Of a stretch of 64,000 nucleotides of DNA, positions 2,421 through 56,172 are shown in pieces (position 1 is the first letter of the stretch; each line of letters starts with the position of its first letter). Made by a program: the position numbers and the translations under genes. This DNA is from Eledone cirrhosa (taxonomy: Eukaryota): NCBI GenBank assembly GCA_964016885.1, contig OZ024743.1, positions 109,182,001 to 109,246,000 on the forward strand, read 5' to 3'. Below the pieces are notes generated by a model. That model saw only the letters and a list, made by a program, of their open reading frames with translations. It was not told the DNA's origin and made no database searches.

Positions 2421-4340
2421 TAATAATAATAATAATGCTTTCTTTATTGGCCACAAGGGCTGACACGAAGAAAAACTTTAGAGACAGCACAGAAGAGTAC
2501 AGGGCGATACAAAGTGGATTTTGGTCGTGTAAACAGGTTATAACAAAATCGGGCTAGAAATCCCAAGAAATTCAAACAAAAATTCCCCAAGAAGGGGGAA
2601 ACCTCCGAGGGTCACTCGTGGTGCAAACCACACAAAAGACCACGGCCACCCTTACCACCAGGTCAAGGGGCCTCTCTCACTTTTCCCACTCCCCAGTCTA
2701 CAGGCGGATACTCAGAGCGGGCTCGTTCACTCGGACCAGACTCGCCACTTTCACCCACCTTTCAACAAACTTACTAGAAGACTGCACTTGCTTCTCCGCC
2801 CTGATTTTCCTCTTCAAGTGAAACTTGAAAAAGTTAATCAGGGATTGGCCGGAGAGAAAAGTGTCCGCTTCAACCCTTTCAACCTTGTCCACCACACAAT
2901 CTCTTTCGCCATGGGCAAAGCCTGCCTTTCCTCCTATTTAAGTGAGGATGACGGGGCTATCTGCACAATGGACTCAGTCGATAACTGGATCCGTCCTACA
3001 CGCGACAGCAGCTGTTCGACATAGCTTCACCACCCAGCAATCCTCGGACACTGAACGAGTGCGTGCAGGACGGTTTCATCGCCATGCGCGCATCTCGGAC
3101 AGGCTCGGCTGACAGCACCTCCGTGCCTGTAGAGCTTATCCCGAACCGGCAAAGCGCCCCGGTAGCACTGCCAGGCTAGGGATTTCGGGAAGTTTTCGGT
3201 AGGCCCCGGTCTGATAGTTCCCTTGCAGAGTGCGAACAGCTGATCATCTTCGACGCCCAGGTTCTCCCCGAGAACGTCGTCGCTCTTTCCCTCCACAAGC
3301 CCTCTATCGAACGCCGAGGTGGATGTTCCACTGATACTAGTGCTCAGCTGGTAGAGGGCGATGATCGCTTGGAGACATTCCAGCTTCCAAGCGCTATCCT
3401 TCAGTCTTTTCCTGATCCACGACTGCAGCTCCGTCAAGGAGACGAGCTGGGGAAAAGCGCATCTGGCAAACGGCGACCACACCTGTTCACCGTCAAGGAA
3501 GCACCAGAGATGTCGTAGCGTCAGCGCATGTTTGCGCATCATCAACCACCGTATGCCTAGTCCTCCACGCAACATCCATTTGGCTGGTCATGGGTGCTTC
3601 CAAGAGATTGTCGGTGTATATCCAACTGAGTTGGGGAAGTTTTCTTTTAAAAGTTTATAATGTTCTATTTTGATTTCAATAATCTTTATATTTTTCGGGA
3701 CAGTTCTTGGTGTTGGTGAGGTGTGTGATATCTGTGTGCTGCTTTATATGTCGTAAGAGTTATTTATTTGCCCTGTTTATGGCTGTGTACTTTTTTTCCG
3801 GAGAGGGGTGGTCTTGTTGCTGTTTTCTTGTTGTTGCTGTTGGGTGTGTGTGCTTTGTTGTGTTGCGATGTTAGTGTTTTTGGTGATGCTGGTGGCGGTA
3901 TGGTTGTTGTTGGTGGTGATGCTTGTGTTGGTGATGGTGATGGTGGTCGTGTTGCTACAAGTCTCCTTGCAGCCTTTACCACTTTTTGTTTGCCTTCGCT
4001 TTTGGACGGTGAAGCTAAGGGTTTTTTTCTTTTTTTGATTTTTGTGGCAGACCGTTTGCCACTTCCCTCCCTCCTCATACTCCATGTCGGTTTGCGTGGC
4101 GTCTGGGAGGGGTATGAGCTTCACTATTGTTGGTGGTGTTAGAGGAGCCCGCACCGGCGATGTTGCCCCCTGTGTAGCTACTGCGACTGAAGGTGTTGCC
4201 GCCACTGCTGCTGCTGTATTAGATGTCCGTGGCCTTGGTATGGGTGCCACTGATGTCGCCCTCCTACTCAAGATAGATCAGGCATCGGAAGGAGGGGTGG
4301 CCATCTTCTTGGCTGTCTTCTGCGGACAGAGATTCTCCCA
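2421..4340 (-). mobile_element. Second Tx1/L1-like LINE copy: 3' end (Cys/His finger, AATAAA, (ATT)n tail) joined to an ORF1-like low-complexity region
   Basis: ORF 3027-3575 ends in RACPRCAHGDETVLHALVQCP (CCHC). ORF 2698-2895 is a typical C-terminus. On the minus strand GCCAATAAAGAAAGC is followed by (ATT)n at about 2421-2450. ORF 3777-4271 has MEYEEGGKWQTVCHKNQKKKK, typical of the ORF1 tail (ORF1 assignment is inference). Confidence 0.75.
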
Positions 4341-5554: not shown

Positions 5555-5607
<53 letters not shown>

Positions 5608-5609
<2 letters not shown>

Positions 5610-6487
5610 AGACGTAAAATAAGAAAATTATAAAAATTAAATTACTTACTAAAATTTCACTCCAACTAATTAGTTTCTGAAAGGGAATAAACATAGTTTC
5701 CGAGGAAACGTACAGAGAAGCCTTTCGTCATCAGGGAAGTCTATTCTCAGCTAAGTTTCCAGGCAATACGTGGACACAGGGAACTTATACAAAAATAATT
5801 CAGTGGATGGAAAAAAGTAAAGCGTGGACTAAGTTCCAAGCCATTGAAACAATCACTGCCTACTGCGTCGGTGGCAAATTCAAAAGTTACTAAGACAAAA
5901 CCTATATATTTGCTGGCATAGGTATGCATCTGTATATATATGTTAGTAGATATACTAATTTTTATAATTATCTCCAAATTAATTTGTCGAGCCAAAATTG
6001 GCCAAAACTGCTACTATAGTTCATAGTAACAGTCCGGCTGCTGTCTTCTTAACAAACCACTCTTCAGTGATTGACCTCTATGTCACGTGATTGATTCTTT
6101 TGAATTTGCCACCGATGCAGTAGGCAGTGATTTTTTCAATGGCTTGGAACTTAGTCCACGCTTTGGTTTTTTATCCACTGAATTATTTTTGTATAAGTTC
6201 CCTGTGTCCACGTATTGCCTGGAAACTTAGCTGAGAATATACTTCCCTGATGACGAAAGGCTTCTTGTACGTTTCTTCGGAAACTATGTCTATTCCCTTT
6301 CAGAAACTAATTAGTTGGAGTGAAATTTTAGTAAGTAAGTTAATTTTTATAATTTTCTTATTTTACGTCTCTCATATTATTGTTCTGCATCCCCATGCAT
6401 TGAACCACAAAGTTACTAAGACACAACCTATATATTTGCTTGCATAGGTATGCATCTGTATATATATGTTAGTAGATATACTAATTC
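5608..6487 (+). mobile_element. Non-coding PLE-type/retrozyme-like element with inverted arm and terminal direct repeat, flanked by (TA)n
   Basis: 5608-5884 is an inverted copy of 6098-6372, and 5882-5960 is a direct copy of 6408-6487 (period about 526 bp). It carries a CTGATGA..stem..GAAAC motif and is homologous to 47684-48365. Confidence 0.75.
6234..6296 (+). ncRNA. Hammerhead-like motif (non-canonical stem I/III); inverted copy at about 5686-5746
   Basis: CTGATGA(6247-6253) CGAAAGGC-loop-GTTTCTTCG GAAAC TAT GTC. The closing helix GAATA(G/T)AC/GTCTATTC is offset by TTCC. Confidence 0.5.
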
Positions 6488-8248: not shown

Positions 8249-9613
8249 TTAAAAAGAACATATGAAACAACATGCAAGAACGAGAAATAACAAAATTATA
8301 ATAAAATGTGATACAATTTTTAAAAGTTCAACTAGTTCAAATAGGAAATACAGGATTAGAGCACCGCACAATAGCAGCTTCAAAATATACAGTGCCACAC
8401 AGTCTTTTGGGCCAATGAATCCTCCGACCGGAACGGCTCGTAGTCTTATATCTTCGTGATTGGGGGGACGAAGAAGCAGGTGTTTGTGCGAAAGAAAAAG
8501 ACGGGGCGTTTGTGGCTCAGGTGTGATAGCGTATGTGTCCAAATTTGCTCGTTTGAGTCGATCAAGAGAAACCACCTCTCTGGAACCCTTAATGTCTACA
8601 GTTAAATGTTTCTCAGAACGAGCAAATACACGGCAGGGTTCAGAGTATGGTTGTGTGAGAAGTGGTCTCACAGAATCATTTCTCACAAACACATGGTTCC
8701 CCGAGGCAATATCCCTCGGAACTGCAGATTTTACAGTTTGCTTCCTCGTATCCATCGGCGGCAGTTCCTGAAAATAAGAACGCAGACGGGATACGTAGGA
8801 AAGCGGATCTTGTTCAGCAAGATCGACAGGGGCAAGCATTTGCCCAGGTAACGCTAGAGGAGCACCATATAATAATTCGGCCTGGGAGAACCCAAGATCC
8901 TCCTTTATTGTTGACCGAATCCCCAACAACGCAATAGGGAGGTACTCGCTCCAACGCGTAGGGTAAGGAGAAGTCCGTAGATTGGCTTTTAGTTGTCGGT
9001 GTAAACGCTCCACTATTCCATTAGAAACAGGATGATATGCAGTCGTTCGGTAGCGTTTAGCGCCGATGATTTTCGTTAATTCATGGAAGAGATTCGATTC
9101 AAACTGCCTTCCACGGTCGGTGGTAATTGACGTTGGTACTCCATATCGAGCGATCCATCCAGGCACAAGGGCACGCGCTGTCGTCTCAGCAGTGATATAT
9201 TTCAAGGGGATGGCTTCAGGCCATCGCGAAAAACTATCGATAACAGTCAATACGTAATTAAGACCACCGCTGATTGGCCAATGTCCCACACCGTCCACAT
9301 GAATGTGGCGAAACCTAGCGTCCGGGTTACAAACGGTACCTAGATGAGTCTTAACATGCCTGCGAACTTTTGATTTCTGGCAAGCAACACAGGAACGGCA
9401 CCAAACAGTAATATCACGTCTTATTTTTGGCCAGACAAATCTAGCCTTTATGAGTTTTACTGTGGAAAAAGATCCTAGATGTGAAATGTCGTGTAAAACA
9501 AGAAACACAGTTCGACGATGGTTCAACGGAACGAAAGGGCGTGGCACATCCAAAGAGACGTCGTAGAGGAGCCGTCGGTCTGCGGTTGATAATGGTAGGT
9601 ATTTCATCTTCAA
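8249..9613 (-). pseudogene. Gypsy integrase (HHCC zinc finger plus DDE core)
   Basis: LHDISHLG...CRSCVAC; [30 protein letters not shown]. Confidence 0.93.
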
Positions 9614-9619
9614 TTCATA

Positions 9620-11360
9620 AATTCAGACGATGTAACATCCAACGATTCGAGAGTAGGCTGATCGGCTGCCAAGCGATTCAAATCTATGTCATCGGACGAC
9701 GAGATCGAAGCAATCGGCAAACGAGACAGGGCGTCGGCCGCTGTATTCATAGAACCCGGAATATGTTGAATATCATTAGTAAATTGAGAGATAAGGTTGA
9801 GATATCTAGTTTATCTGTGCGAGTATTTGTCGGCCTTTGCTTGAAAGGCGAATGTCAACGGATTGTGGTCCGTGAAGATGGTGAACGTTCCTCCTTCAAG
9901 CATGCGCGAAAAATGCTACACCGATAAGTATATAGCTAACAACTCCTGTCCAAAGGTGCTGGAGCGCCTTTCGGCAGGTTTCAGCTTCCTGGAGAAAAGT
10001 TCCAACGGTTGCTGTTGATCGTTTTTAATTTGCTGCAAAACTGCGCCCACGGCAGTATCCGACGCATCAACACAAAGCCTCTTTATTTTTCTTTCGGCAA
10101 TTTTTCAAAATTTCCATCAATTAGGCACAAGCCGCCTATAAAAATTAATCAGCCCCATGAATTGGCGCAACTGACGGAGTGAGGTTGGTGGAGGCAAATC
10201 ATCTATAGCTTTAACTCTCTCAGGAATAGGTCGAATACCGTCAGCGTCAATGACGTGGCCCCAAAAATTCAGAGATTCGGAACCCAAAACACATTTTGAT
10301 GGATTAATCCGAACATTTTAATCCTTCAAACAACAAAATAGAAGGTCCAGATTGCGCAAATGTTGCTCTGGAGAAGAGCTAGCAACAAGAAGATCATCAA
10401 CATATATGTGTATACAAAATCGAGGCCACGAGTGACTTTATCCATAAATCGCTGGAAGGTGCTAGCATCATTCCTTAACCCGAAAGGCATGATGAGAAAT
10501 TTGAAAGATCCAAATGGCGTAGTTATAGCAGTTTTCGGGATGTGGTCTCTGTTGACAGGAATCTGGTTGTAGGCTCGGCACCAATCGAGTTTCAAAAAAA
10601 TGTTATTAACTTGCACCGAGGATGCACAATCCTGCAGATGTGGGATAGGATACCGATCCGGTATGGTCATCGAGTTCAATCGTCTATAATCCCCTGTGGG
10701 TCTCCAATCGCCAGAAGATTTTGGCACCATATGTAATGGAGATGCGCACGGGCTCGTGGAAGGACGAATAATTCCGAGCTGCAGCATACGATCGAACTCG
10801 GACCGTGCTGCATTCAGTTTGTCCGCTTGCAATCGACGGGGACGCGATAAAACCGGAGCGCCAGTAGTAGTAATAAAATGCACCGTGGCGTGGTTTGGAT
10901 CAGTGACTCTAAAATTTCCATGATATGGGTTTCCGGAGTTAGCGATGAAGAATGTCGGGCTAACTGTAGAAACTTCTGCCGTCCTGCCACAAAGAGAAAA
11001 CACAGTAATATCGTCGACTAGGCGTTGGTGACGGACGTCCACCGTCAAAGACAAATTGTGCCGGAAGTCCGCGACCAAATCGGGTATGGCAGGTCGGCAA
11101 CAGTGAAAACCCATTTGAAATCCCGACGAAGATTTCGAAACTGAAGTGGAAGTGAGATCTGTCCAAAAGTTCGGATTGGTGACTGGTTGACAGCTTGCAA
11201 TTCAATCGACGACTCGGGAGGAGTTACTGTAATACAATTAACAGGCCAAATACTGCACGAAGCTCCTGTGTCTACTAGGAAGTCTCTTCCCGTCAGGAGG
11301 TCCTCTATGAAGAAATGGCGGTTCTGTTGTGTCTCGCAGAGTCACTTGCCGCCTTTAGTG
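9620..11360 (-). pseudogene. Gypsy pol: aspartic protease, RT and RNase H (frameshifted)
   Basis: FLVDTGASCSIWP at about 11245-11285; ASPLHMVPKSSGDWRPTGDYRRLN, MPFGLRN (ORF 10326-11114); LCVDASDTAVGAVLQQ RNase H at about 10030-10080. Confidence 0.92.
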
Positions 11361-14554: not shown

Positions 14555-14820
14555 AAGTCAAACATGTTAAATTTGGCTTCGTTTATTATAAATGCTCTGC
14601 TATATATATTTCAGTGACAGCTATTATTTGCTGTGACTTCATCAGGCAATACAAATTAATGTAGAAAGGACAGGTGTAACACATTTCAACACCATGTTTA
14701 CCTGTCCTTTCTAAATTAATTCGTACTCCCTGATTAGATCACAGCAAATAATAGATATCACTGAAATATATATAGCAGAGCATTTATAATAAACGAAGCC
14801 AAATTTAACATGTTTGATTT
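14555..14820. repeat. Fold-back mini-element carrying hammerheads in both arms
   Basis: 14555-14680 is the reverse complement of about 14695-14820; lies between (TA)n tracts. Confidence 0.88.
14597..14649 (-). ncRNA. Type I hammerhead ribozyme
   Basis: Minus strand: TTGC CTGATGA AGTCACAGC-aaataata-GCTGTCACT GAAA T-ATAT-A TA^ GCAG. Stems I, II and III and an AUA triplet are present. The mirror copy at 14726-14778 has a degraded core (CTGATTA). Confidence 0.78.
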
Positions 14821-17576: not shown

Positions 17577-17704
17577 AAAGTTCTATTTAAAATTGTTGGG
17601 ATACAACAAGTAAATATTTTTATAACTGATATAAAGCACTCGACAAGTATTTGGAGTAGATATACGATATTAATAAATGGAAACTATATTTATAAAACCA
17701 TATT

Positions 17705-17769
17705 TATTTCATTATACATATTTCAGGGATACCAAATTAAATTATGGTATGCCTTCATCAGACAAAATA
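17705..17769 (-). ncRNA. Type I hammerhead ribozyme in the 3' pseudo-LTR
   Basis: Reverse complement of the 21643-21707 motif, in the sense orientation of the element. Confidence 0.8.
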
Positions 17770-18374
17770 CAATATATAACAGTTTTACAAATAAGCTTTG
17801 ACGTACCTTTTTAAAATGCAACCATTATTTTTGGAAGCGATCTGGATAGTGAGTTGTTTATATTATTTTAATAAGTCATAGTGTTAAAGACACTTAGAAA
17901 AAGACGGAGAGAAATAAAATGACGGAGAGAGAGAAAGAAAAAACGTGGAGAAATATCGGAGAGAGAGAAATGCATGGAGAAAAAAGAAAGAGATAAATAA
18001 AGACAGGAGGAAAGAATGAAAAAAGAAAAAAGGAAGAAATAAGAAAAACAGAGGAAAGCAACAGAGAGATATTAAGTCATCAGACAGATAGAAAAACTCA
18101 AGAGAGAGAAATATTATATAGAGAGAGGGGTAGATAATGAAAACTTTACGTCATGTCATATTAAGTTGAGTTAACAATTTATATGAAATGAATAATAAAA
18201 ATATAAATATTAATATTCATGAATGGGACATAAATATATAATATGAGAAATTAAACATTGTTTAATAATGACTATATGTTTAGTTTAAAACTTGAGATCA
18301 ATATACCAAAATTTGGGTTTAATCATCCAAAATGTACACATTGCTAGAGAAATCAGTATCTTAGGCAAAGACAC

Positions 18375-18414
<40 letters not shown>

Positions 18415-19189
18415 GCACGTCCTGAAAATAGAAATTATATTTACTCAAGTAAACAATATAGACATACGAAAAAACGCAGACGATTTCTCCTAATCACTGC
18501 TATACATTCCTTGTGTTATAAAAAGTTCACAGTATATATACATAAATATATACGATTAACATTCATGTCTTCATATATACGATTACCATTCATGCATTTA
18601 ACATTCTGCTAAAATTATGCATATCTGCAATCCAAACTGCGTGGTTACGCAACATATCTCTTACCCACACACATACATATACATATATATATATACACAT
18701 ATATATGTATAAATAAATATTTGCGTGCGTCTTCCCGCATCGCTCATGTATACATACAGACATATATACAATCATAAACAACCTATAACACTTTTATATG
18801 CATGTTAATACGCACATACACATTTGTATAGAGATAATCAAATATCAATATATTACTAAGGATTATACTTTGGAAATATAACTATAACAATATAAATTTA
18901 AAATACCAAAGTATTATATTTTGGAAATACAATTATATCAGTATAGTCAAAAGGACAAACGAATTCTAGAAATATCAAAGCATTAAATATCTTTAAAACA
19001 CTATAGAGTATCTTAAGTTAAAATAATATGTTTCATATATTTAGTATAGAAATTTATCCTACGTATATTTCAATCAAGATATTGAAAGGGTAGACTTATG
19101 AAAATTATGAGAAGCTATCAGAATCAAAACAAAACTAATAAAAATAAATAAAAATAAAATAAAAGTTAAATAAATAGTATATCAATATA

Positions 19190-19300
19190 ATTTAAAAATT
19201 AAAAAATTAAAAAATTAAAAAATTTAAAAATTTAAAAATTTAAAAATTTAAAAATTTAAAAATTTAAAAATTTAAAAATTTAAAAATTTAAAAATTTTTA
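19190..19300. repeat. (AAAATTTA)n 8-mer tandem repeat in the PLE 3' UTR
   Basis: Directly visible. Confidence 0.9.
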
Positions 19301-19589
19301 AAAAAGTTCAAAGAATTTAAAAGATTTAAAAAAACAAAAATTCTACAGATATCCTTATATTTAGTATAGAAATTTATCCTACGTATATTTTATTTAAGAC
19401 ATTGGAAGTATAGACATTTTAGAGTAGTTTATTATATCTATGTTTATATTTAGGAAGAAAGTTTAAAAAGAAAAAGGTGAAGGAATCTAATGATTTATCA
19501 ACAGGTTTCATATATTAACTAAATTACTTAATTAATTATACTACATTTTAAATTTATATTTATATTTAAACGTTGAGTTCAATCTATGT

Positions 19590-21480
19590 CTGCAGCAACT
19601 GAATAAATTGTTCCTTAAATTAAGGGAATTTTTGGACTTTAATATGAAGAATATTTCTTCAATACAAAGATCGCAATTTTCTGAAGCGGAATTAAAAGGA
19701 GTAGATTATGAAATAATATTCCAAGTCATCGAATATTTAACATTATCTCGTTTTAGGTACCATAGTAGGCTAGATAGCGAAGTTGAAGATTTTTTGTTTG
19801 GATCTGTGAAAGAATTTTTATGATTATTGTAGCGAAATTTAAATTCTGTGGAGGTAGAACCAACATAGTTAAATGAATTTAAATTAGTTTTAACATTACA
19901 ATTGTACACTACATTTTTAGCTAAGCAGTTGTTATTTAACGGACAGTTAGATTTATTTCTACAGTTACAGTTATTCAATTGAATATTGCTTGGGTTATTA
20001 TTGGTATTTTGGTTAGGTTTTAAATTTCTATTATTAATTCTATTAATATTTTGTGCTAAATTTTGGTGGACGAGTAATTTAATTTTATAGTGTGTCTATT
20101 AAAAATTGAGTAATATTTATGTGTTCTAGGGAAGCGTTTGTCAAGAGCATTAAAGAATAGTTTAGCAATAGGGGTTTTAATATTTAGTGAGAAGGGGGAG
20201 CAAACCATAATATATTTCTAGTTATATTTCTTTTTCGGCTTTTGGAATTATTGTAATGTTTTCTATTATAGTTGTTAAAGTTGTTACCATAATTAAAATT
20301 GTTATTATTTTGGTTAGTTTGCATATTATTATTATTATTATTATCAATGTATTTACTTTTATTTCTACATCCAGCTCTTCCTAACGCTTCGTTGTAATAC
20401 TGCGCTTTTTCATCAAATATATTTTTATTAGATGAAATTCTTGAAATTCGTTCTTGAACAGAGTTCACTATAGTATTTTTATCAGATCTGGGGTGATTAG
20501 AGTTAAAGTTGACATAATTCAAGTTCTCATTTAGTTTGTGAAATGGATAATGAAGACATGTGTTGAGATTTAGTGTTACGTCAAGCAAATTGACTATTTT
20601 ATGCTTATTCTCTATTTCTACTTTTAGATTAAGGTAATTAAAAAATTGTATAATTTGTTTTCTTTTTCTATTTAGTTGACAGCTATTATTTTGTATAAGT
20701 AAAAGCATGTCATCACGATATAAGCCTCCGGTTACACCTGGTATTTTTCTATGTAGCGAATTAATTATAAATAGGCCCACAAGGTCCGTTACCTGAGCTG
20801 AGTCTGATGATCCCATAGTTATGTCGAAATTATTATTTCTATCTGCCCTAATTCAGAGTTGGTTATTAAATTCTATCAATGTTTTCCTTGCCGATAATAT
20901 AATGTGCATTTCATTGCTAGTTAGGTCTGTATGTTTAAATGCGTAATTTAGTGCCTTATTAAGTAGATTAGGAGTGATAGATGAATAGTAGTTAGCAATA
21001 TCCAGCTGAATAAACTTATTATTATAGTTATATTTAATTTCTTTAAACCAATCGATAACCTCACTAGTCCCTTTCCATAAGTTTAAGTAAGATAAATTAG
21101 TTAAGTTTTTAATTTGTTGTATTACCCTGTCTAGAATATTTTTTGCTAAGTTTGCCCAGGTCAGATTTAGATGGTGCAATTAATCTGACTGGTAAATAAT
21201 TTTCAAAGTTTCTTTTGTGATCCTTCATATTGATCTTAGGTATCTAGGCATGAAGGGTTGTGTTTTATTCTCAATGTCTAATTCATGCATTATACAAGAT
21301 GCATCTGTATTCAGTTTTTCAAGTTCGTCCTTATTTGCTACCTTGTACTTTTTCCTTAGTTCTTTCAATATAAGATCGTTATAAATGTCCTTTTGTATTC
21401 CATAAAGATTATTAGTTTTGTCCGACTTCACTAGAATTTTCTCTGTTTTCTCCAAGTTTTCAATATTATCCTTAATACTT
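19590..21480 (-). pseudogene. PLE reverse transcriptase plus GIY-YIG endonuclease (frameshifted)
   Basis: VKSDKTNNLY; FIQLDIANYYSSI; MGSSDSAQVTDLVGL..GLYRDD; CNCRNKSNCPLNNNC..NVVYNC..YVGSTSTEFKFRYNNH. Confidence 0.9.
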
Positions 21481-21642
21481 CTTAGTATGTATTTTTCTTT
21501 CTCTCCGTCTTTTTCTAAGTGTCCTTAACACTATGACTTATTAAAATAATATAAACAACTCACTATCCAGATCGCTTCCAAAAATAATGGTTGCATTTTA
21601 AAAGGGTACGTCAAAGCTTATTTGTAAAACTGTTATATATTG

Positions 21643-21707
21643 TATTTTGTCTGATGAAGGCATACCATAATATAATTTGGTATCCCTGAAATATGTATAA
21701 TGAAATA
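21643..21707 (+). ncRNA. Type I hammerhead ribozyme in the inverted pseudo-LTR
   Basis: TATTTTGT CTGATGA AGGCATACCA-loop-TGGTATCCCT GAAA T-ATGT-A TA^ ATGAAATA: 8-bp stem I (two G-U), about 9-bp stem II, minimal stem III. Confidence 0.8.
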
Positions 21708-21746
21708 AATATGGTTTTATAAATATAGTTTCCATTTATTAATATC

Positions 21747-21824
<78 letters not shown>

Positions 21825-30274: not shown

Positions 30275-33200
30275 TTTTCTCTTTCTCTTAATTTCGAGTA
30301 TATTTGTTTGACCGGCCACCTTCCTGGTGGCAAGGTTGTAAAAGAAAAGAAATTGTCATCCCTTGAATCGCAAGAATGTTTTGCATATTTTGAAGGTGCC
30401 AGCTATCGCAGCCATTTGTAGACCATGAATTAGGGAGCTGCGCTTTTTGTCCGCAAATCCAAGTTCGGTCATACTTTGGTCCAAGCGGGTTGGTATATAA
30501 CCCGTAGCACCAATAATGATGGGTATGAAGCTAAAGGTGTATCTTGGATACTGGATTTGTAAGCTCCTCATCAATGGTCCGTAGATGTCCTCCTTCTCCT
30601 GTATTTTTCTGACAACGTTTACATCAAGTGGGCAGCTGATCTCCACAACAGAACACGTTTTCAATGTGTGGTCCCAAACTACAATATCAGGCCGGTTGTG
30701 CTTTAATTTGGTGGCAGTTTTTATTTTCAGGTTCCACCAGTATTCCTTAGTGCCATCTGTCTCAATATATTCTTCCTCGTTTGTTGTTAATTTTGTTTTC
30801 CGAAGTGCGTTCCAGATAGTTCTAGCTATCCCATCGTGTCTCATGGGGAGGTAGTAGCGAGATGACATTCTTTCGCAGCTGGCAACAATGTGGCTTACAT
30901 CCTCGATCTTTGTTTTACATAGCCTACATTTATTGTCAGCTGCTGGCCCTCCTCTTTTGTGCAGCAGATATTTGGTAGGGAGTTCTTGTTCCTGTATTTC
31001 ATAGAGATATCCCTCAAGGTGTGATGTCATAAACTTTTCGGAACTCCATGCCAGGCTTTTTGAGTGGTTTATCCCCTCTATGGTCTGTGTTTTACGCCTC
31101 AAGTATCCATGCACAACTTTCTCTGTAAATTGGTCAATTTTTTGTTCTTGTTTGAACATTGAATAGGATCTTCCGATTTCTCTGGGTGATAGATTTATAT
31201 CAGGCTTTATTCCATATCTCTCCTCCAGATCAGTCGCTATTCTAATGATATTTCTTTTTTCATGCTCATAAACCTGAGCAAGATGGTCACCAACCTTTTT
31301 CCTCTGTTGAAGGTGTTGCTTCAGTGTTACTATCCGGGTCTCATATGTTGTTAATATTGATTTTAGACCCCGGCCACCTTCCTTGCGTGAGAAGTATAGC
31401 CTATCCACATCACCATTGATGTTAAAGTTCCCAGTAACACTGAGAAGTTTTCGAGTTCTAACATCCATCTCACTTAGTTCTTGCAATGACCAGTTCAGTA
31501 GGCCAAATGTTGGCGTTAGAATTGGCACAGCATAGGTATTGTGGTCAATGTATTTGTTGTATGCTGACAGTTCTGATGACCATATTTTTTTTACTCTTCT
31601 GAGGTATTCAGTTCTGGTTCTCTCCTTATTTATGGGTCCATCATATCTGACATTCTCATCCTGTCCAAGATATCTGTAGTTGTCACCTGACTGCAGAGGT
31701 TGTATTGTCAGGCCGTTCATATCTAGATTTCTAGAGGAGGGCACAGCTCTTGCACGTTTTACTGCAAAATATGCACATTTGGACTCACCGAATTTCATTT
31801 TGATGTCGGTTGAAAATTGTGTAATGAGGTCCAATTGTTTCTTGATCTCATTGATATTTGGCCCATACAACTTCAGGTCATCAACAAAGAAAAGATGGGA
31901 GATACTTCTGGGCCCACTTCTTTGTCCACCTTGTTTCCTGAGTAGGTAATATAGTGGATTCAGTGAGAGAACGAAGAGTAGTACTGACAAGCTATCACCC
32001 TGAAAGATGCCCTTCTGGTAATGTATCCTATCAGTCTTAACCTGCTCCTTCTCACCTCTAAGGATCAAATTGGTGTACCAGTTCTTGGTCAGGCGTTCAA
32101 CAGCAGCTACTAATGGTTGTGGGACTTTAGCTAACTGTAAAGCCTTAATAATCCACCCATGAGGTACACTATCAAATGCTTTTTGATAGTCCAGCCACAC
32201 GACAGTCATGTTTCTGCGATTCTTTGTTGTTTTTTCCTGAATCATTTTGTTAGTTAGTAGGTGATCTATGCAACCCCACACCTCCCTCTTTCCACCAGCT
32301 TGCTCAGGTGTTATGTTGGTAGCACAGTGATCCTGTAAGAACAGGTTAAGGCACCCAGTATATAATTTATACATGATGTTTTGGCAGGCAATTGGGCGGT
32401 AATTTTTAGCAAGGGTGGTTTGGCTATTTTTGGGAATGAGGAGAGTAGTGGCAGTTGATAACCATCTGGGCAGTTCTTGTGTGCCCTTAATGGTTTCTGT
32501 AAACAGCCGTATGAGATCTTGCCGATAGAAAGTGAAATTCTTCAACCAGTATCCTGTAATGAGGTCTGGGCCTGGCGATTTCCTATTCGACATTTTCTGT
32601 AGAGCTGTTTCCAGTATTGACCCATCTATGTCATATTGTTTTGTCTGGACATGTTGGCAGTAGTCCTGTTCCAGTTGTTTTAGCCAATTAGCTTGTCTGT
32701 TGAATCCGTCATCCGTTTCCCATACAGATCTCCAGTAGTTCTCAACCTGTTCTTTTGAAGGGGTGTCGTTTACAGGGATTGAGCTTTTGCCACCGAAGCT
32801 GCGATAAACTGATTTAGGATCTCTGGCAAACAATCTATTTAGCACTTGTCTTTTATGGGCTGTTGACTTATATTTTAGTCTTTCTGTTGTAGCTGTGAGT
32901 TGTTGTTTCAACTGGTGTAATTTGGAGTTCAAAGTTTTAAATTTGGTATCTCCAAATCGTCTCTCTAACTTTTTCTTTAGGTCTTCTTGGTGTCGTGTGA
33001 AGTTTCTCTCTATGTTGCATTTCATAACGACTGCGATGTGTGAGATACTTCATCTCAGGGACAAAATTTTGGTTTTTAAATTTCGCATCCACGCTGGTTC
33101 AGGCTTTCTGTTTGTATCTTGATTGCGTGGTTTTAGATGTGTGTTATATGATAGCAATGTGACAGCTGAAACATATAACAAAACATTGAGCGTTTCAAAT

Positions 33201-42950: not shown

Positions 42951-44357
42951 TATATATTTAATAATACACTGTGTGAATATTTTAAAACATTTTAAAGGCC
43001 TTTTTGGTTTGAATTTAAGGCGGTGACTCTAGTCAAGCTTCAGCAAAGAGAATTGGAAATAATCGACGATCGTTTTTCACTGCTTAGTGATTATCAAGGC
43101 TATATATCTCTTGACTTTTGTTGTGTGATGTTGAAGCTGGGTTCTTATGGAATACCAATTATGTCTATGTGTTGTTTAAACTCATTAATATGCAGAGCGG
43201 CTGCCGGCCCAGCAACAAATAGAAATTTGTGTCGGAGCCCTGAAATGTAAATATAAATGTACGTAATGTATATTTATTTATATACAGTCATTCTTGCCCG
43301 CTAAATAATAACTGCCTTGAACGCAATCTAGTGTATAAATGGATTATTAAAACTAATAATAAGTCGTATAATTATATCGGTGCTACTTCTTCTAAATTTA
43401 AGGAAAGATGATACAATCATACACATACATTAAAAAGAATAGATAAGACATTCTCCACTTCTCTGTCACCGTTACTATGGCCTCTTAAAAGCAAAAACAT
43501 CGATTACTCCCTATTTTGGCATAAACTGGGTATGACCCCCCATATGTAAATTCTACTATTTATAAAAATTGTAATCGCTGTAATACTGACATTTTGTATA
43601 TTTTTTGTAATAGGAAATATATTATTAATAAACGCACGGACGGTTTTGTGGCTGTGTACACAGGTTTCCTAGATCTTTTCACAGAATGTTTAGCTAAACT
43701 TATACACACACATATATATATATATATTTGTATGGTTGTATTGATATTTATGTATGTATATATATATATGCGCATGTATATATGCTTTTTATATATGCAT
43801 ATGTATATAATATCAACTTAATAAGTGGCACTATATCTTTCTAAAAAAATGTTTCTATGTCATAAGATATTTTATATATTATATTATAGATTTTCTATTT
43901 TCCTATACTTTCTCTCATCCATTTATTTTTTCCAATCACATATTTATTCTACCTCCCTTAACTCCTTAAATTCTATTTCATATAATCCATAAGAAAACAG
44001 ATGTTATAGATTATCCGTTCTCCTATATGCTTATCTGATTTATCCGTTATAACCCTTACATAATATGTTCTCACCTACCAAAATCTAGGATTGCAGCTAA
44101 ATAAATTTATTATAGATAACAAGTTATATATGTTTTTCTATATCTACAATAATTATATAAAATACATATCGGTTTTCGATATTACCCTTACAATTAAAAA
44201 TGAGGATTTATTTATATACTTATTTATTCTAAGCCCATTAATACATTCTTTCCCCCTGAACTATACAATATTTAGCTTAAATAAAATGATAGTTAATACC
44301 ACATAAAATTAGATACAATTAATCTAGTATATTCATAAAACCCTCCAATTATAATAT

Positions 44358-44693: not shown

Positions 44694-44823
<130 letters not shown>

Positions 44824-44906
44824 GGAGGTGAGTGTTATTGTAGTACAATAAAGCAATGCAGATATCGGATAAGAAGCACTCTACAGTTTGTAGGACTGGA
44901 GTATAC

Positions 44907-45126
44907 ATAATATATAAGATCAAAAGATGGTTAAAGGAGTTCCATGTATTTTATTATGCGCATTTCATGTTGATTTAAAACTGCACTATCCACAAATGTT
45001 TTTTAGCCTTCATATCATGTTCTCCTGTTTTATCTGATGAAAACACAAATATTATTGCATGATGATGTTTGTTTTTGAAATGCACATAATAAAATACATG
45101 GAACTCCTTTAACCATCTTTTGATCT

Positions 45127-45135
<9 letters not shown>
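44907..45135. repeat. Short fold-back mini-element with hammerhead
   Basis: 44907-44967 is the reverse complement of 45077-45135; ends in (TA)n. Confidence 0.85.
45026..45096 (+). ncRNA. Type I hammerhead ribozyme (best-formed in the window)
   Basis: TGTTTTAT CTGATGA AAACACAAATATTATT-gcat-GATGATGTTTGTTTTT GAAA T-GCAC-A TA^ ATAAAATA: 8-bp stem I, about 15-bp stem II, AUA triplet. The mirror arm has palindromic TGCGCA in stem III. Confidence 0.83.
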
Positions 45136-45173
<38 letters not shown>

Positions 45174-45296: not shown

Positions 45297-45488
45297 CTAG
45301 GAAGATTTGAGATTTTTATCATGGACCTGTAAAAACCATTCTTGATAGTATACTATGAAACAATTTATACATCTCATATGTATTTTGTCTGAAGAAGGCA
45401 TTTTTGTTAAACGTATATTTTTGCATCCCCGAAACATATAAAATGAAATAAATTGTGATGTTATAAAGTTATATCTTTCGTTTATTAC

Positions 45489-45492
<4 letters not shown>
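45297..45492 (+). mobile_element. Solo pseudo-LTR of the Nematis-like family with degenerate hammerhead (45381-45450)
   Basis: TATTTTGT CTGAAGA AGGCA...CCCC GAAA CATATAAA ATGAAATAAAT is homologous to 21643-21750; the NUH triplet is mutated. Confidence 0.7.
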
Positions 45493-45571
<79 letters not shown>

Positions 45572-50551: not shown

Positions 50552-52637
<2,086 letters not shown>

Positions 52638-52646
52638 TATATATAT

Positions 52647-52734
<88 letters not shown>

Positions 52735-52752
52735 GTATGTATATATATATAT

Positions 52753-53812
52753 ATGACGAAAACTTCTACAGGAAAATCACTAAAAACGAAGAAAGGAAAT
52801 CGAGGAACCAAATAGGCAAACTAACAACAAAGTACCAAAACAACCTAAGACCAAAAGAAGTAGATTACCTAACCAACTTCGAAATGAAAACCAGCAATTT
52901 CTATGGATTACCAAAAATTCACAAATCCATAGAAATCCAAAACAACATAAAAGGCAAAAATACATCATACATCGAAGCACCAAAACCGACAGACTTAAAA
53001 TTACGCCCCATTATTGCTGGCCCAGCCTCAAGCACACAACGTCTAAGCAACCTATTAGACATCATACTCAAACTCCTATGTAAAATAGTTCCAAGCTACA
53101 TCAGAGATGATATGGAATTCCTTAACTATATCCCCCAAAAAGTACACCCGGATACACTCCTAGTCAGTTTTGATGTAATAAGCCTGTACACTAACATCCC
53201 ACACGACCTAGGGATTGAAGCTGTGGACTTCTGGATTACAAAACACTCAAGTCACATTTCAGAAAGATTCCCCAAAGAATTCATCTTGGAAGGACTTAAA
53301 TTAGTATTGGAAAACAACCACTTCCTCTTTGACAACGAACTTTATCTACAAATAAAAGGAACAGCCATGGGTACCAAAGTGGCCCCTACATATGCAATTC
53401 TCGTTATGGGTCACTTAGAGGCAACATTATATTCCCAACTACAGATAACATTCAGTCACGACTTCGCCTTCTACATTAATAAAAACTGGAAACGTTACCT
53501 AGATGACTGCTTCATCTTCTGGAACAGAAGCCAAACAGACCTACAAAAAATGTTATTCGATCCTAAACAGGCTTCATGAAGCTATACAATTCACTATGGA
53601 ATGTAACGAAAAGGAACTGCCCTTTCTAGATATCCTCATCATTAAAGAAGGGGAAAATATCATAACGGACCTATTTTGCAAACCCACTGACACACACCAA
53701 TACTTAAATTTCCGGTCAGCACACCCCTCACATACGAAAAGGAACATTCCCTTCTACATGGCAAGGCGAATCTGCACTATAGCAACACACCCCGTACTAC
53801 ACCAACAACCAA
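52753..53812 (+). pseudogene. Neptune-like PLE reverse transcriptase fragment
   Basis: FYGLPKIHK, LRPIIAGP, FDVISLYTNIPH, GTAMGTKVAPTYA, WKRYLDDCF, LPFLDI, KPTDTHQYL..SAHP; one frameshift near 53550. Confidence 0.9.
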
Positions 53813-53959
53813 CAACTTAATTTATAAAATAATTTTTTTTAAGAAAAATTCTTTTTGGATTTTGTGAAGAAAATAAATTTGTTGAAAGCACAAGTGAAGC
53901 CATTTTTTCTTCCCCCCTGTCTTAATATACCTAACTGTACCAGGGATTACACACATTTT

Positions 53960-53987
<28 letters not shown>

Positions 53988-53994
<7 letters not shown>

Positions 53995-56172
53995 ATACTT
54001 GGGGAGGGTCATATTTGTGTAATATTGACAGAATTAATAACAGAACACACTCACTGTTTGGTTGGTTTACGCTTCTCGCTGTCTTTTATATCTGCGATCT
54101 AACTTACTCGGTCCTCAATGTTGCCATTGACTGACCGAAGGTCAAAAATAATACAGATACAGTATAGACACAAACACATATATATAGTTTACATAAATCT
54201 TTCGAGGCACATCTGCAACATCGTCAGTGGTGTTATATTTTTTTTCCTCCTGTTGTGTTGTATGTCTACGCCATTTTTTATTCAGTCTGTCTATATATTT
54301 ATTTATTTGCTTGTTTGTTTATTTTATTTTGTCTTCTTTGCGCATGCTTTTGCGTGTGTGTATAGTGTTATGTTTGCTGTGTGACTAGTGTGTATAGTGT
54401 TGTGTTTGCTGGGTGACTAGTGTGTGTTTATGTGCTTGTTATTATTGTTCTTGTGTATGTATTTATTTATCTTATTTTATTTTATTTTATTTACTTATTT
54501 ATACTTCTCTTAGGTCAGTGTTGTTTGTTTGGGTGTTGTTGTTGTTCCACTCATTCTTTCTGTTTAGCTTTGGTCTTCTAATTTCTATTTCACTGGCCTC
54601 TCTGATTTGCCTATCTTCTGGGTCATTCCTATGTTTAGATATTATTCTAATTTCTATGTTGTCTATGTTACCGTCATGTTGTTGTCTAGCATGTTCGTAT
54701 AGTACTGACCCGTTTTGTCGTCCTTTTAGTTCCCCCCAGTGTTTGTCCATCCTTTCACCTATGCTACGAGCTGTCTCCCCTATGTATGTTGTTGTCATGT
54801 TTCTGCAAGTACCCTCTATACATATTATGCTATAGACTACGTTTCTAGTTTTACAGTTTATCCGGGGGTTCACCTTACATATGATACATTTCCTATTGGT
54901 ACAGTGGGTTTTCTTAAAAGGGTAGGTTTTGCCTATCAGGGATTTTATGGTGATTCCTGGCTTTTCTACCACCTTTATTTTTAAGTGGGTCTTTCTCAGG
55001 GCCTTTCTACACTGGTTAACTAATTTCCCTCCAGGGGTGGCGTCCACAAACATGACACTCTGATATCTCTGGTTGTCGTACCATGATGTGGCCTTCCCTA
55101 TCTTATGTCTAGCCCTATCAAGGCTATTCCATGATTTGCACCTGTATAATGGGCAAATTCCTTTCATGCCCAGTTCTATGAGGGTCTTATACTTTTCCAT
55201 GGCTCCTTCGTATACTCTGACTCTGTCTCTTTGGTTGTAGCCAGAGAACTGCATGCGGTTGATTAAGTGTTGGATGTGTCTTTCCATTTCTGTTGGGTCG
55301 CACATGCTGGACACATTCTTCATCACTCGTACCAAATCTGCGATCAGAATATTAAACTTAGCACTACTGGACATTGCTTAGTTTTTGAGTATCAGGTATT
55401 TGGAGGCCATGGGTTTAGCATAGTGTGAGTGGAGAATTTGGGCTCTCTCGTCTATAGTGTTAATCCAGAGTTCTGTGTCAAATACAGGTAGTCTATTGTT
55501 AGGTTGTTTGGAAGGGAAGTCGATAGTTACAGTTATACTCTGGTGTATGGAATTAGCTATCTGCTGGATGCTTTCCATCGTGCTACGTTCTAAATCAAAC
55601 TTGTTAGTGCTCTCTAGTGGGGGTGTTCTTATAACTATATTGATATCGTCTACATAACGAGAGTACATGATGAGGTCTATGGAGCTTTCATTAAGGAGAT
55701 ATTTAAGTCTCCTTTCCCACCATACCATGAAAAGGTTGGCAACATCACCAGCTATGCTGACGCCGATGGCTGCTCCCTCATTTTGGGTGTAGATTTTCTC
55801 ATTGAACTTAAATATGTGGCCCTTTAGGGTAGTTTTGATACAATCCCCTATTGCATGTGCGACCATTTTTCTTACCTGATCATTGTTTTGGGGGGTCCGT
55901 ATAGCTTTGGTCCACCCAATCCACCTTCCCATGGGAGTCTTTTTACCATTGAGGTTAGGGTGGGGGGTCTACCTCTTATAGGTCTACTAGGGCAGAAACA
56001 TCTAAGAAAGTTAGATCGCAGATATAAAAGACAGCGAGAAGCGAAAACCAACCAAACAGTGAGTGTGTTCTGTTATTAAGTCTGGCAATATTACACAAAT
56101 ATGACCCTCCCCAAGTATAACAATATTTGTTTCTACACACGATTTCATATAAAAAACCTCGCTAAACTAATT
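53988..56172 (-). mobile_element. PLE, 5'-truncated, with inverted pseudo-LTR (56008-56172)
   Basis: RT ORF 55378-55932 and ORF 54499-55374 are separated by one in-frame TAA. 56008-56125 is an inverted copy of 53988-54105. Hammerhead-like motif at 54190-54231 (-). (TA)n flanks. Confidence 0.92.
54499..55932 (-). pseudogene. PLE RT C-terminal half, Cys-rich linker and GIY-YIG endonuclease
   Basis: QNEGAAIG, YSRYVDD, HCTNRKCIIC..C, NVVYSIIC...YIGETARSIGERMDKH, EASEI..PKLN. Confidence 0.92.

Follow-up and report, generated by a model that had tools for sequence, protein, structure and literature searches.

What kind of element is a short, non-coding fold-back that carries a hammerhead ribozyme, and does it move as a lineage of its own? 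The locus lies in a 64,000-nucleotide stretch of Eledone cirrhosa DNA (the window), where two inverted arms of 66 nt (44902-44967 and 45076-45141, 97% complementary) fold together at -102 kcal/mol (z = -16.4). The initial annotation described a fold-back of about 230 bp at 44907..45135, with 60-bp arms ending in (TA)n and no coding capacity. The fold-back and its arms are indeed present and the largest frame starting with methionine is 40 amino acids, but the boundaries were drawn too narrowly. The insertion extends over about 315 bp (44821-45135) and is embedded in a (TA)n target microsatellite, visible in the sequence at 44766-44820 on the left and at 45134-45170 on the right. Only the right arm runs directly into (TA)n. 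The left arm continues into an 86-bp segment that had been overlooked, the tail (44821-44906, minus strand), and the (TA)n lies beyond it.

Comparison of copies showed that in a longer parent element the tail follows the terminal repeat (pLTR) and leads into the 5' UTR. The short arm (44907-44967, minus strand) matches the parent as a 5'-truncated 3' end and contains the GAAA, the cut site and the 3' strand of stem I. It also keeps the TGCGCA previously noted for this mirror arm (44957-62), though with only the 3' half of the hammerhead present, the CTGATGA being absent. The long arm (44967-45135, plus strand), when aligned to the full-length locus L061, is the parent pLTR from 2 nt inside a common 5' start to the first of two 3' end sites. 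From junction comparison the arms meet head-to-head at 44967 with an overlap of one base. Each arm includes sequence that the other lacks, and it is the arm with the shorter 5' reach that carries the tail, leaving the sense arm without one.

Related sequences are abundant. A 225-bp query gave 1,373 candidates, and the 40 scored all aligned at 89-100% along most of it; an exact 23-mer spanning the hammerhead core and stem II has 14,925 matches in the genome (control 0). These copies are ends of a longer Penelope-like element (PLE). Many of the 23-mer matches are minus-then-plus pairs, 0.1-5 kb apart, around a 5'-truncated element. L061 holds an intact 800-residue ORF followed by about 1.25 kb of 3' UTR, and closes with this pLTR and tail; on its 5' side lies a truncated copy of 881 bp in inverted orientation. 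The parent is about 3.7 kb long; its positions 3582-3727 align with 44967-44820 of the window at 97%, and the long arm differs from L061 at two of 165 nt (44971 and 45084). The tail is common to most of the 30 best copies and in the tandem copies L065 and L075 runs on into the 5' UTR and ORF, as it does at 207 such places in the genome. Movement by a PLE reverse transcriptase (RT)/GIY-YIG protein, as had been proposed, agrees with a parent whose 800-residue ORF is accompanied by the same pLTR and tail; a minimal non-autonomous parasite does not, as the window copy comes from the end of a longer PLE that is autonomous and located elsewhere in the genome.

Pfam and PDB sequence searches with the parent ORF returned no match. 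A search retrieved 18 relatives. For a structure model from 19 sequences (mean pLDDT 79.6) the top PDB matches in Foldseek are telomerase RTs (TERT). The neighbouring Atlas clusters contain GIY-YIG, RVT_1 (18-77% of members) and HTH_animal. The ORF has DKT at 123, CxCx5C at 659, CxxC at 759 and CxH at 787, and it is without the CCHH cysteine pair, there being one Cys between IYEC and YFG. On these motifs and the modelled fold the parent is a Penelope-like element with a predicted telomerase-like RT and GIY-YIG endonuclease in one ORF, and a pLTR, a partial tandem, an inverted 5'-truncated copy and an optional tail, all features of PLEs, are present. The Hydra clade is defined by DKT, a CxCx5C linker, CxxC and CxH around the catalytic E/N, the lack of CCHH, and RWK (PMC8557442). 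From its motifs the parent likely belongs to this clade, most of whose features were found. Like the Hydra-clade PLEs of Craig et al. (2021, PMC8557442), it has a single ORF with RT and C-terminal GIY-YIG, the DKT, CxCx5C, CxxC and CxH motifs, no CCHH in the GIY-YIG core, a hammerhead in the pLTR, (TA)n targets, an inverted 5'-truncated copy and a tail. It differs in its length of about 3.7 kb, where those elements are generally below 3 kb, in a tail of 86 bp rather than the usual 30-40 bp, and in the RW at residue 37 being followed by T (L061) or I (L075) in place of the K of RWK (PMC8557442). Residues ~580-656 of L061 form a low-confidence Asn/Pro/Ser-rich linker between RT and endonuclease that is absent from relatives of about 720 residues and recalls the Asn-rich inserts of rotifer Penelope ORFs (PMC3846280). 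The family may already be listed in the supplements of PMC8557442 or bioRxiv 10.64898/2026.07.22.740005.

The coding PLEs of the window are not the parent, as had been noticed, the nearest having 53% amino acid identity to it over 380 residues. This related Hydra-like PLE (17657-21760; ORF 21485-19571, minus strand) has a hammerhead pLTR at 17713-17761 (minus) and an inverted copy at 21651-21699 (plus), in the same head-to-head layout. A decayed pLTR with a hammerhead of that family (82%) lies at 45379-45540, 250 bp from the fold-back. Elsewhere in the window are a head-to-head pair at 5603-6377, whose 284-bp arms (96%) each contain a hammerhead of another family, a hammerhead with a TATATA stem III at 14601-14645 (minus), and a fragment at 43295-43694 (plus) that resembles the endonuclease end of the parent. 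From their motifs we take 8249-11201, 30356-33049 and 51692-55968 to be LTR-type pol pieces, a non-LTR RT frame of 897 residues that has a restriction-like end, and additional pieces of PLE RT/GIY-YIG; two of the three regions have RVT_1 matches.

The hammerhead overlapping the right arm is complete and laid out as the initial annotation had it. It is of type I (45026..45096, plus strand as are all its parts), with stem I at 45026-33/45089-96 (8 bp, one G.U), the core CTGATGA at 45034-40, stem II at 45041-76 (15 pairs, the first of them A-U, and one C.U mismatch at position 4), GAAA at 45077-80, a stem III octamer at 45080-87 and a predicted cut after 45088 (AUA). The CUGANGA, GAAA and UH columns are all present, and no common variant is seen in them among 140-175 arms. 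The description of the ribozyme as apparently intact, however, does not hold for stem III. A G to A change private to this copy, at 45084, breaks the self-complementarity, giving TGCACA where 172 of the 175 arms examined have G (TGCGCA), and places two C.A mismatches in the predicted dimer. The calculated dimer duplex of the window stem III (ATGCACAT) is -3.7 kcal/mol compared with -10.5 kcal/mol for the family palindrome, and the change is likely to weaken or cripple the hammerhead. The pairing probability of stem I is 0.66 in the long arm alone and 0.0 in the whole fold-back transcript. Three features make the window copy likely a dead end: the mutation in stem III, the lack of a tail on the sense arm, and the 66-bp hairpin, in which the cut site of a read-through transcript would be hidden.

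An Rfam scan of the window, the covariance-model search suggested earlier, gave no hammerhead among 86 hits at E<=1, with only microsatellite-driven miRNA matches, and the isolated hammerhead did not fold better than its shuffles (z -0.6 to -0.8). The identification of the hammerhead rests on conservation across families. A loose hammerhead pattern matched at least 85,585 motifs in the whole genome, from many families, against 163 in the control, a very high genomic load. Among 104 distinct motifs taken from fetched DNA, which form 11 clusters, stem III is fully self-complementary as a dimer in 10 clusters and 92 motifs, though the sequences differ (the outer AT..AT was fixed by the search pattern, the inner four bases were free). 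Covariation gave a divided answer: the first three pairs of stem II are formed in 19 of 21 cases over seven families against 14.1 on shuffling, a value reached in 13 of 5000 shuffles, while stem I, with 34 of 42 against 31.3, was matched by 473 of 5000 shuffles and so does not stand above them. Within the family of the window copy the stem changes are of the wobble type only. The self-complementary stem III in 10 of 11 clusters bears out the earlier assignment, and by its sequence the window motif is a Penelope-type, dimer-type hammerhead; the family hammerhead is the ribozyme of the parent pLTR and, given its palindromic stem III, is predicted to work as a dimer. Position 4 of stem II (45044/45073 in the window; loci L178-L207) is unpaired in all 11 clusters with C on the 5' side in nine, and is a candidate for a conserved tertiary contact of long-stem hammerheads.

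The dimer-type PLE hammerheads already described are likewise of type I, with a long helix II and a palindromic helix III that needs a dimer (PMC4209133). Here helix II has 15 bp with the conserved unpaired fourth position, helix I has 8 bp and the palindrome is lost in the window copy. Also known are pairs of PLE hammerheads that lie on opposite strands at a distance of 100-700 bp, as well as solitary motifs derived from truncated PLEs (PMC4209133). A pile-up of 5' ends at the cut was considered as a sign of cleavage in vivo. Arms without the bases before the cut number 104, compared with 43 at a control position, but of 30 examined only 21 are true 5' ends and nine are internal indels, leaving at most a weak excess. 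At one locus, L143 (G000:C1:331692657-331695683), a partial tandem has two pLTR pieces that both start at the predicted cut site, one of them joined to ORF position 335; this single case would fit a cleaved and re-joined RNA template.

The insertions themselves were surveyed in a census of 62 stretches around the first 100 matches of the 23-mer, all within the first 42 Mb of contig C1. The arms are 5'-truncated copies of the 3' end of the element, placed head-to-head, with variable 5' ends and with 3' ends at two fixed sites, with or without the tail, followed in 112 of 114 cases by (TA)4 or more. Sixty insertions could be classed, 33 as long (with element body) and 27 as pLTR-only. Of 51 pairs, 45 carry the tail on one arm and not on the other; by approximate arm lengths the arm with the tail is the shorter in about 19, the longer in 13 and one of two equal arms in 13. 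Because it sits on the shorter arm so often, the second arm frequently cannot have been copied simply from the first. Within an insertion the arms diverge by 1.1% (n=37), compared with 4.7% between insertions, and they belong to one subfamily (of 460 diagnostic sites 5 are discordant, equal to the background of 58 of 5521). Pairing of RNAs from different subfamilies through the stem III palindrome is not supported by the same figures, with which two RNAs from one locus would still fit.

The fold-back is remade at insertion and not inherited, since only 41 junctions of the window type occur genome-wide, eight of them identical, and they are on different subfamily haplotypes. Copies with the exact junction diverge from one another by 1.3-6.8% but lie within 0-2.7% of some long copy, and among the 30 best look-alikes the junctions differ by a few bases. 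Short and long insertions have haplotypes in common, the short-to-long distance being 0.9% and the short-to-short distance 0.95% (permutation p=0.42). With the scattered haplotypes of the eight exact junctions, this comparison led to the rejection of an independent MITE- or SINE-like element. The minimal parasite envisaged by the initial annotation is also at odds with these results, and the outcome named there as refuting it is largely what is seen: the window element is the end of a longer PLE, and the copies sharing its junction form no lineage. A circular or head-to-tail short unit, as in a retrozyme, was discarded as the 3' tail joins the 5' UTR and not the start of the pLTR; head-to-tail multimers of the short unit were absent from the 62 census stretches. 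The locus L002, considered as a duplicate of the window locus, has flanks that do not align with it. There is very little doubt about the observations on which the rest depends, namely the match to the terminus of a parent that has an ORF, the pair of fixed 3' ends, the variable 5' ends, the (TA)n target and the repeated independent origin of the junction.

With good confidence, then, the window element derives from an abundant PLE, likely a member of the Hydra clade, whose 3' terminal repeat was inserted head-to-head and with extreme 5' truncation. It was likely made in a single event, with one cDNA primed on each strand of a cut (TA)n. Two target-primed cDNAs are invoked because each arm of the window copy has sequence missing from its partner and because about 19 of the 45 single-tail pairs have the tail on the shorter arm. 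It seems reasonably probable that the RT/GIY-YIG protein of the parent cleaves the two strands and begins reverse transcription at two positions within the RNA. At this locus the protein would cut both strands of the (TA)n target; one cDNA would run from the inner start site almost to the common 5' start of the RNA, the other from the end of the tail to a stop at the hammerhead GAAA, and the 3' ends of both would then be joined head-to-head. In L1 twin priming an inversion likewise results from two target-primed cDNAs. Here, where synthesis would begin from two fixed points within the template and cover part of it twice, an inverted repeat would form rather than the simple inversion of L1. For one PLE protein, cleavage and extension of both strands have been demonstrated in vitro, the tail being the segment that separates its two RT start sites (PMC11167929). 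The two 3' ends found here, and the same two in a second family of this genome, fit that result.

Many 5' ends of arms pile up at one place. Thirty-one census arms start at parent positions 3470-71, and genome-wide the base before this common start is G in 2,357 cases and A in 662, whereas the body-attached parent sequence has C in 5,166 and G in 3. In the census, where T was also counted, the 85 starts comprise 11 preceded by G, 7 by T, 4 by A and 4 by C, 14 that are palindromic and 45 that are body-attached; L090 has the extra G on both arms. An untemplated G at a complete 5' end is also found in L1, where it is linked to copying of the mRNA cap (PMC9341517), and by this analogy the common 5' site is likely a capped transcription start. 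The capped RNA would not simply be the template of full-length copies, as none of 30 ORF-linked upstream pLTRs examined (from 207) begins there and 17 of the 30 reach further upstream; a full-length RNA from this site as template of the ORF copies is accordingly not supported. Logan contigs show a depth step at the common start in run X1, and in runs X4 and X5 contigs start there, but these observations are not counted as support, since the sample behind X1 is possibly the one that was assembled and since depth in contigs does not measure copy number. No sharp G-marked start was seen by eye in 30 of the 4,101 matches of the second family. Nor does the available text of PMC8557442 mention a sharp 5' pile-up with an extra G for Hydra-clade PLEs, or the PLE literature searched on twin priming, strong-stop and cap or untemplated bases, a search outside which most subscription papers fell, describe a G-marked start. 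The single-base, G-marked start of pLTR-only insertions and the two RT start sites per insertion may be new. As a tentative reading, a capped RNA beginning at the first base of the pLTR might be copied from two internal sites at once, one on each strand of the cut (TA)n, yielding two retrovirus-like "strong-stop" cDNAs, about 170 and 257 nt long, which end up head-to-head in roughly half of the insertions, with ORF copies made from another, longer or circular template.

Several features of the data could also come from a non-autonomous pLTR-only lineage, SINE-like or retrozyme-like, with its own internal promoter and mobilised in trans, in which short copies beget short ones. The 27 of 60 census insertions that are pLTR-only, their sharp 5' start with its untemplated G and the lack of this start in all 30 ORF-linked pLTRs would suit a separate short RNA; pLTRs can suffice in cis (PMC3846280) and animal retrozymes derive from pLTRs (bioRxiv 10.64898/2026.07.22.740005). 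The close agreement of short-to-long and short-to-short distances speaks against such a lineage, as do the variable junctions, with exact ones scattered over haplotypes, the lack of short-unit multimers in the census and a window sense arm without a tail. A short RNA made from short copies on parental haplotypes would still fit the census sample; as a whole the idea is considered improbable. Another route from the same parent is that the inverted arm was made by fold-back self-priming of a single cDNA, or on antisense RNA, the latter having been proposed for head-to-head repeats (PMC3846280). This would account for the perfect CATATG-centred junctions (14 of 85 starts, in seven insertions) and for the agreement of the arms at subfamily sites. 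Annealing of two ATAT-ended cDNAs, however, explains the palindromic junction equally well, and an extra G is possible on both arms, as in L090. Simple fold-back copying of one cDNA moreover fails for the window copy and the roughly 19 similar pairs with the tail on the less 5' arm, since in these neither arm contains the other, and this route as a whole is considered very unlikely.

Long palindromes are unstable, and a longer inverted insertion might have lost its middle afterwards by microhomology-mediated deletion or hairpin-induced breakage. Deletions of this kind disable Penelope copies in rotifers (PMC3846280). They would hardly produce the pile-up of 5' ends at one base or the excess of untemplated G over the body-attached sequence, and the overlap at the window junction is just one base, so that such a history is given almost no credence. 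The preferred reading remains two cDNAs of the parent RNA primed at one target.

The closest experimental parallel is the Poseidon element PAc of Anolis, for which cutting and extension of both strands, two RT start sites bounding the tail and AT-rich targets were seen in vitro (Frangieh et al. 2024, PMC11167929); for the element described here, cutting and extension of both strands from two start sites would account for the structure of the copies, and the targets are (TA)n. Uncleaved RNA is the main template for PAc (PMC11167929), and here likewise 5' ends do not pile up strongly at the cut. PAc belongs to a different clade and its hammerhead overlaps the ORF start, whereas here the ORF begins about 80 nt past the tail, and head-to-head joining was not reconstituted in the PAc assay as reported in the available text (PMC11167929). 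The short, non-coding form, the type I hammerhead and the relation to pLTRs are shared with the animal non-LTR retrozymes (PMC7229834; bioRxiv 10.64898/2026.07.22.740005). Those, however, are head-to-tail tandems giving circular RNA (PMC7229834; bioRxiv 10.64898/2026.07.22.740005), while here there is a head-to-head pair still identical to the end of its coding parent. Being head-to-head, the window copy is not a retrozyme.

Taken singly the locus is nothing unusual: the end of a truncated PLE, bearing a known kind of hammerhead. Its value is in the data set to which it leads, a young family with thousands of copies that preserves the footprint of PLE insertion. The inverted repeats, the tail and the role of the hammerhead are still called unresolved in the PLE papers compared here. 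With two fixed 3' ends, one tail per insertion, a G-marked 5' start and an intact ORF, the mechanism becomes testable in the existing in vitro assay. If the strong-stop reading is true, inverted pLTRs, one-sided tails and solo pLTRs would all be explained by one mechanism, and the pLTR would be a ready-made seed for retrozymes.
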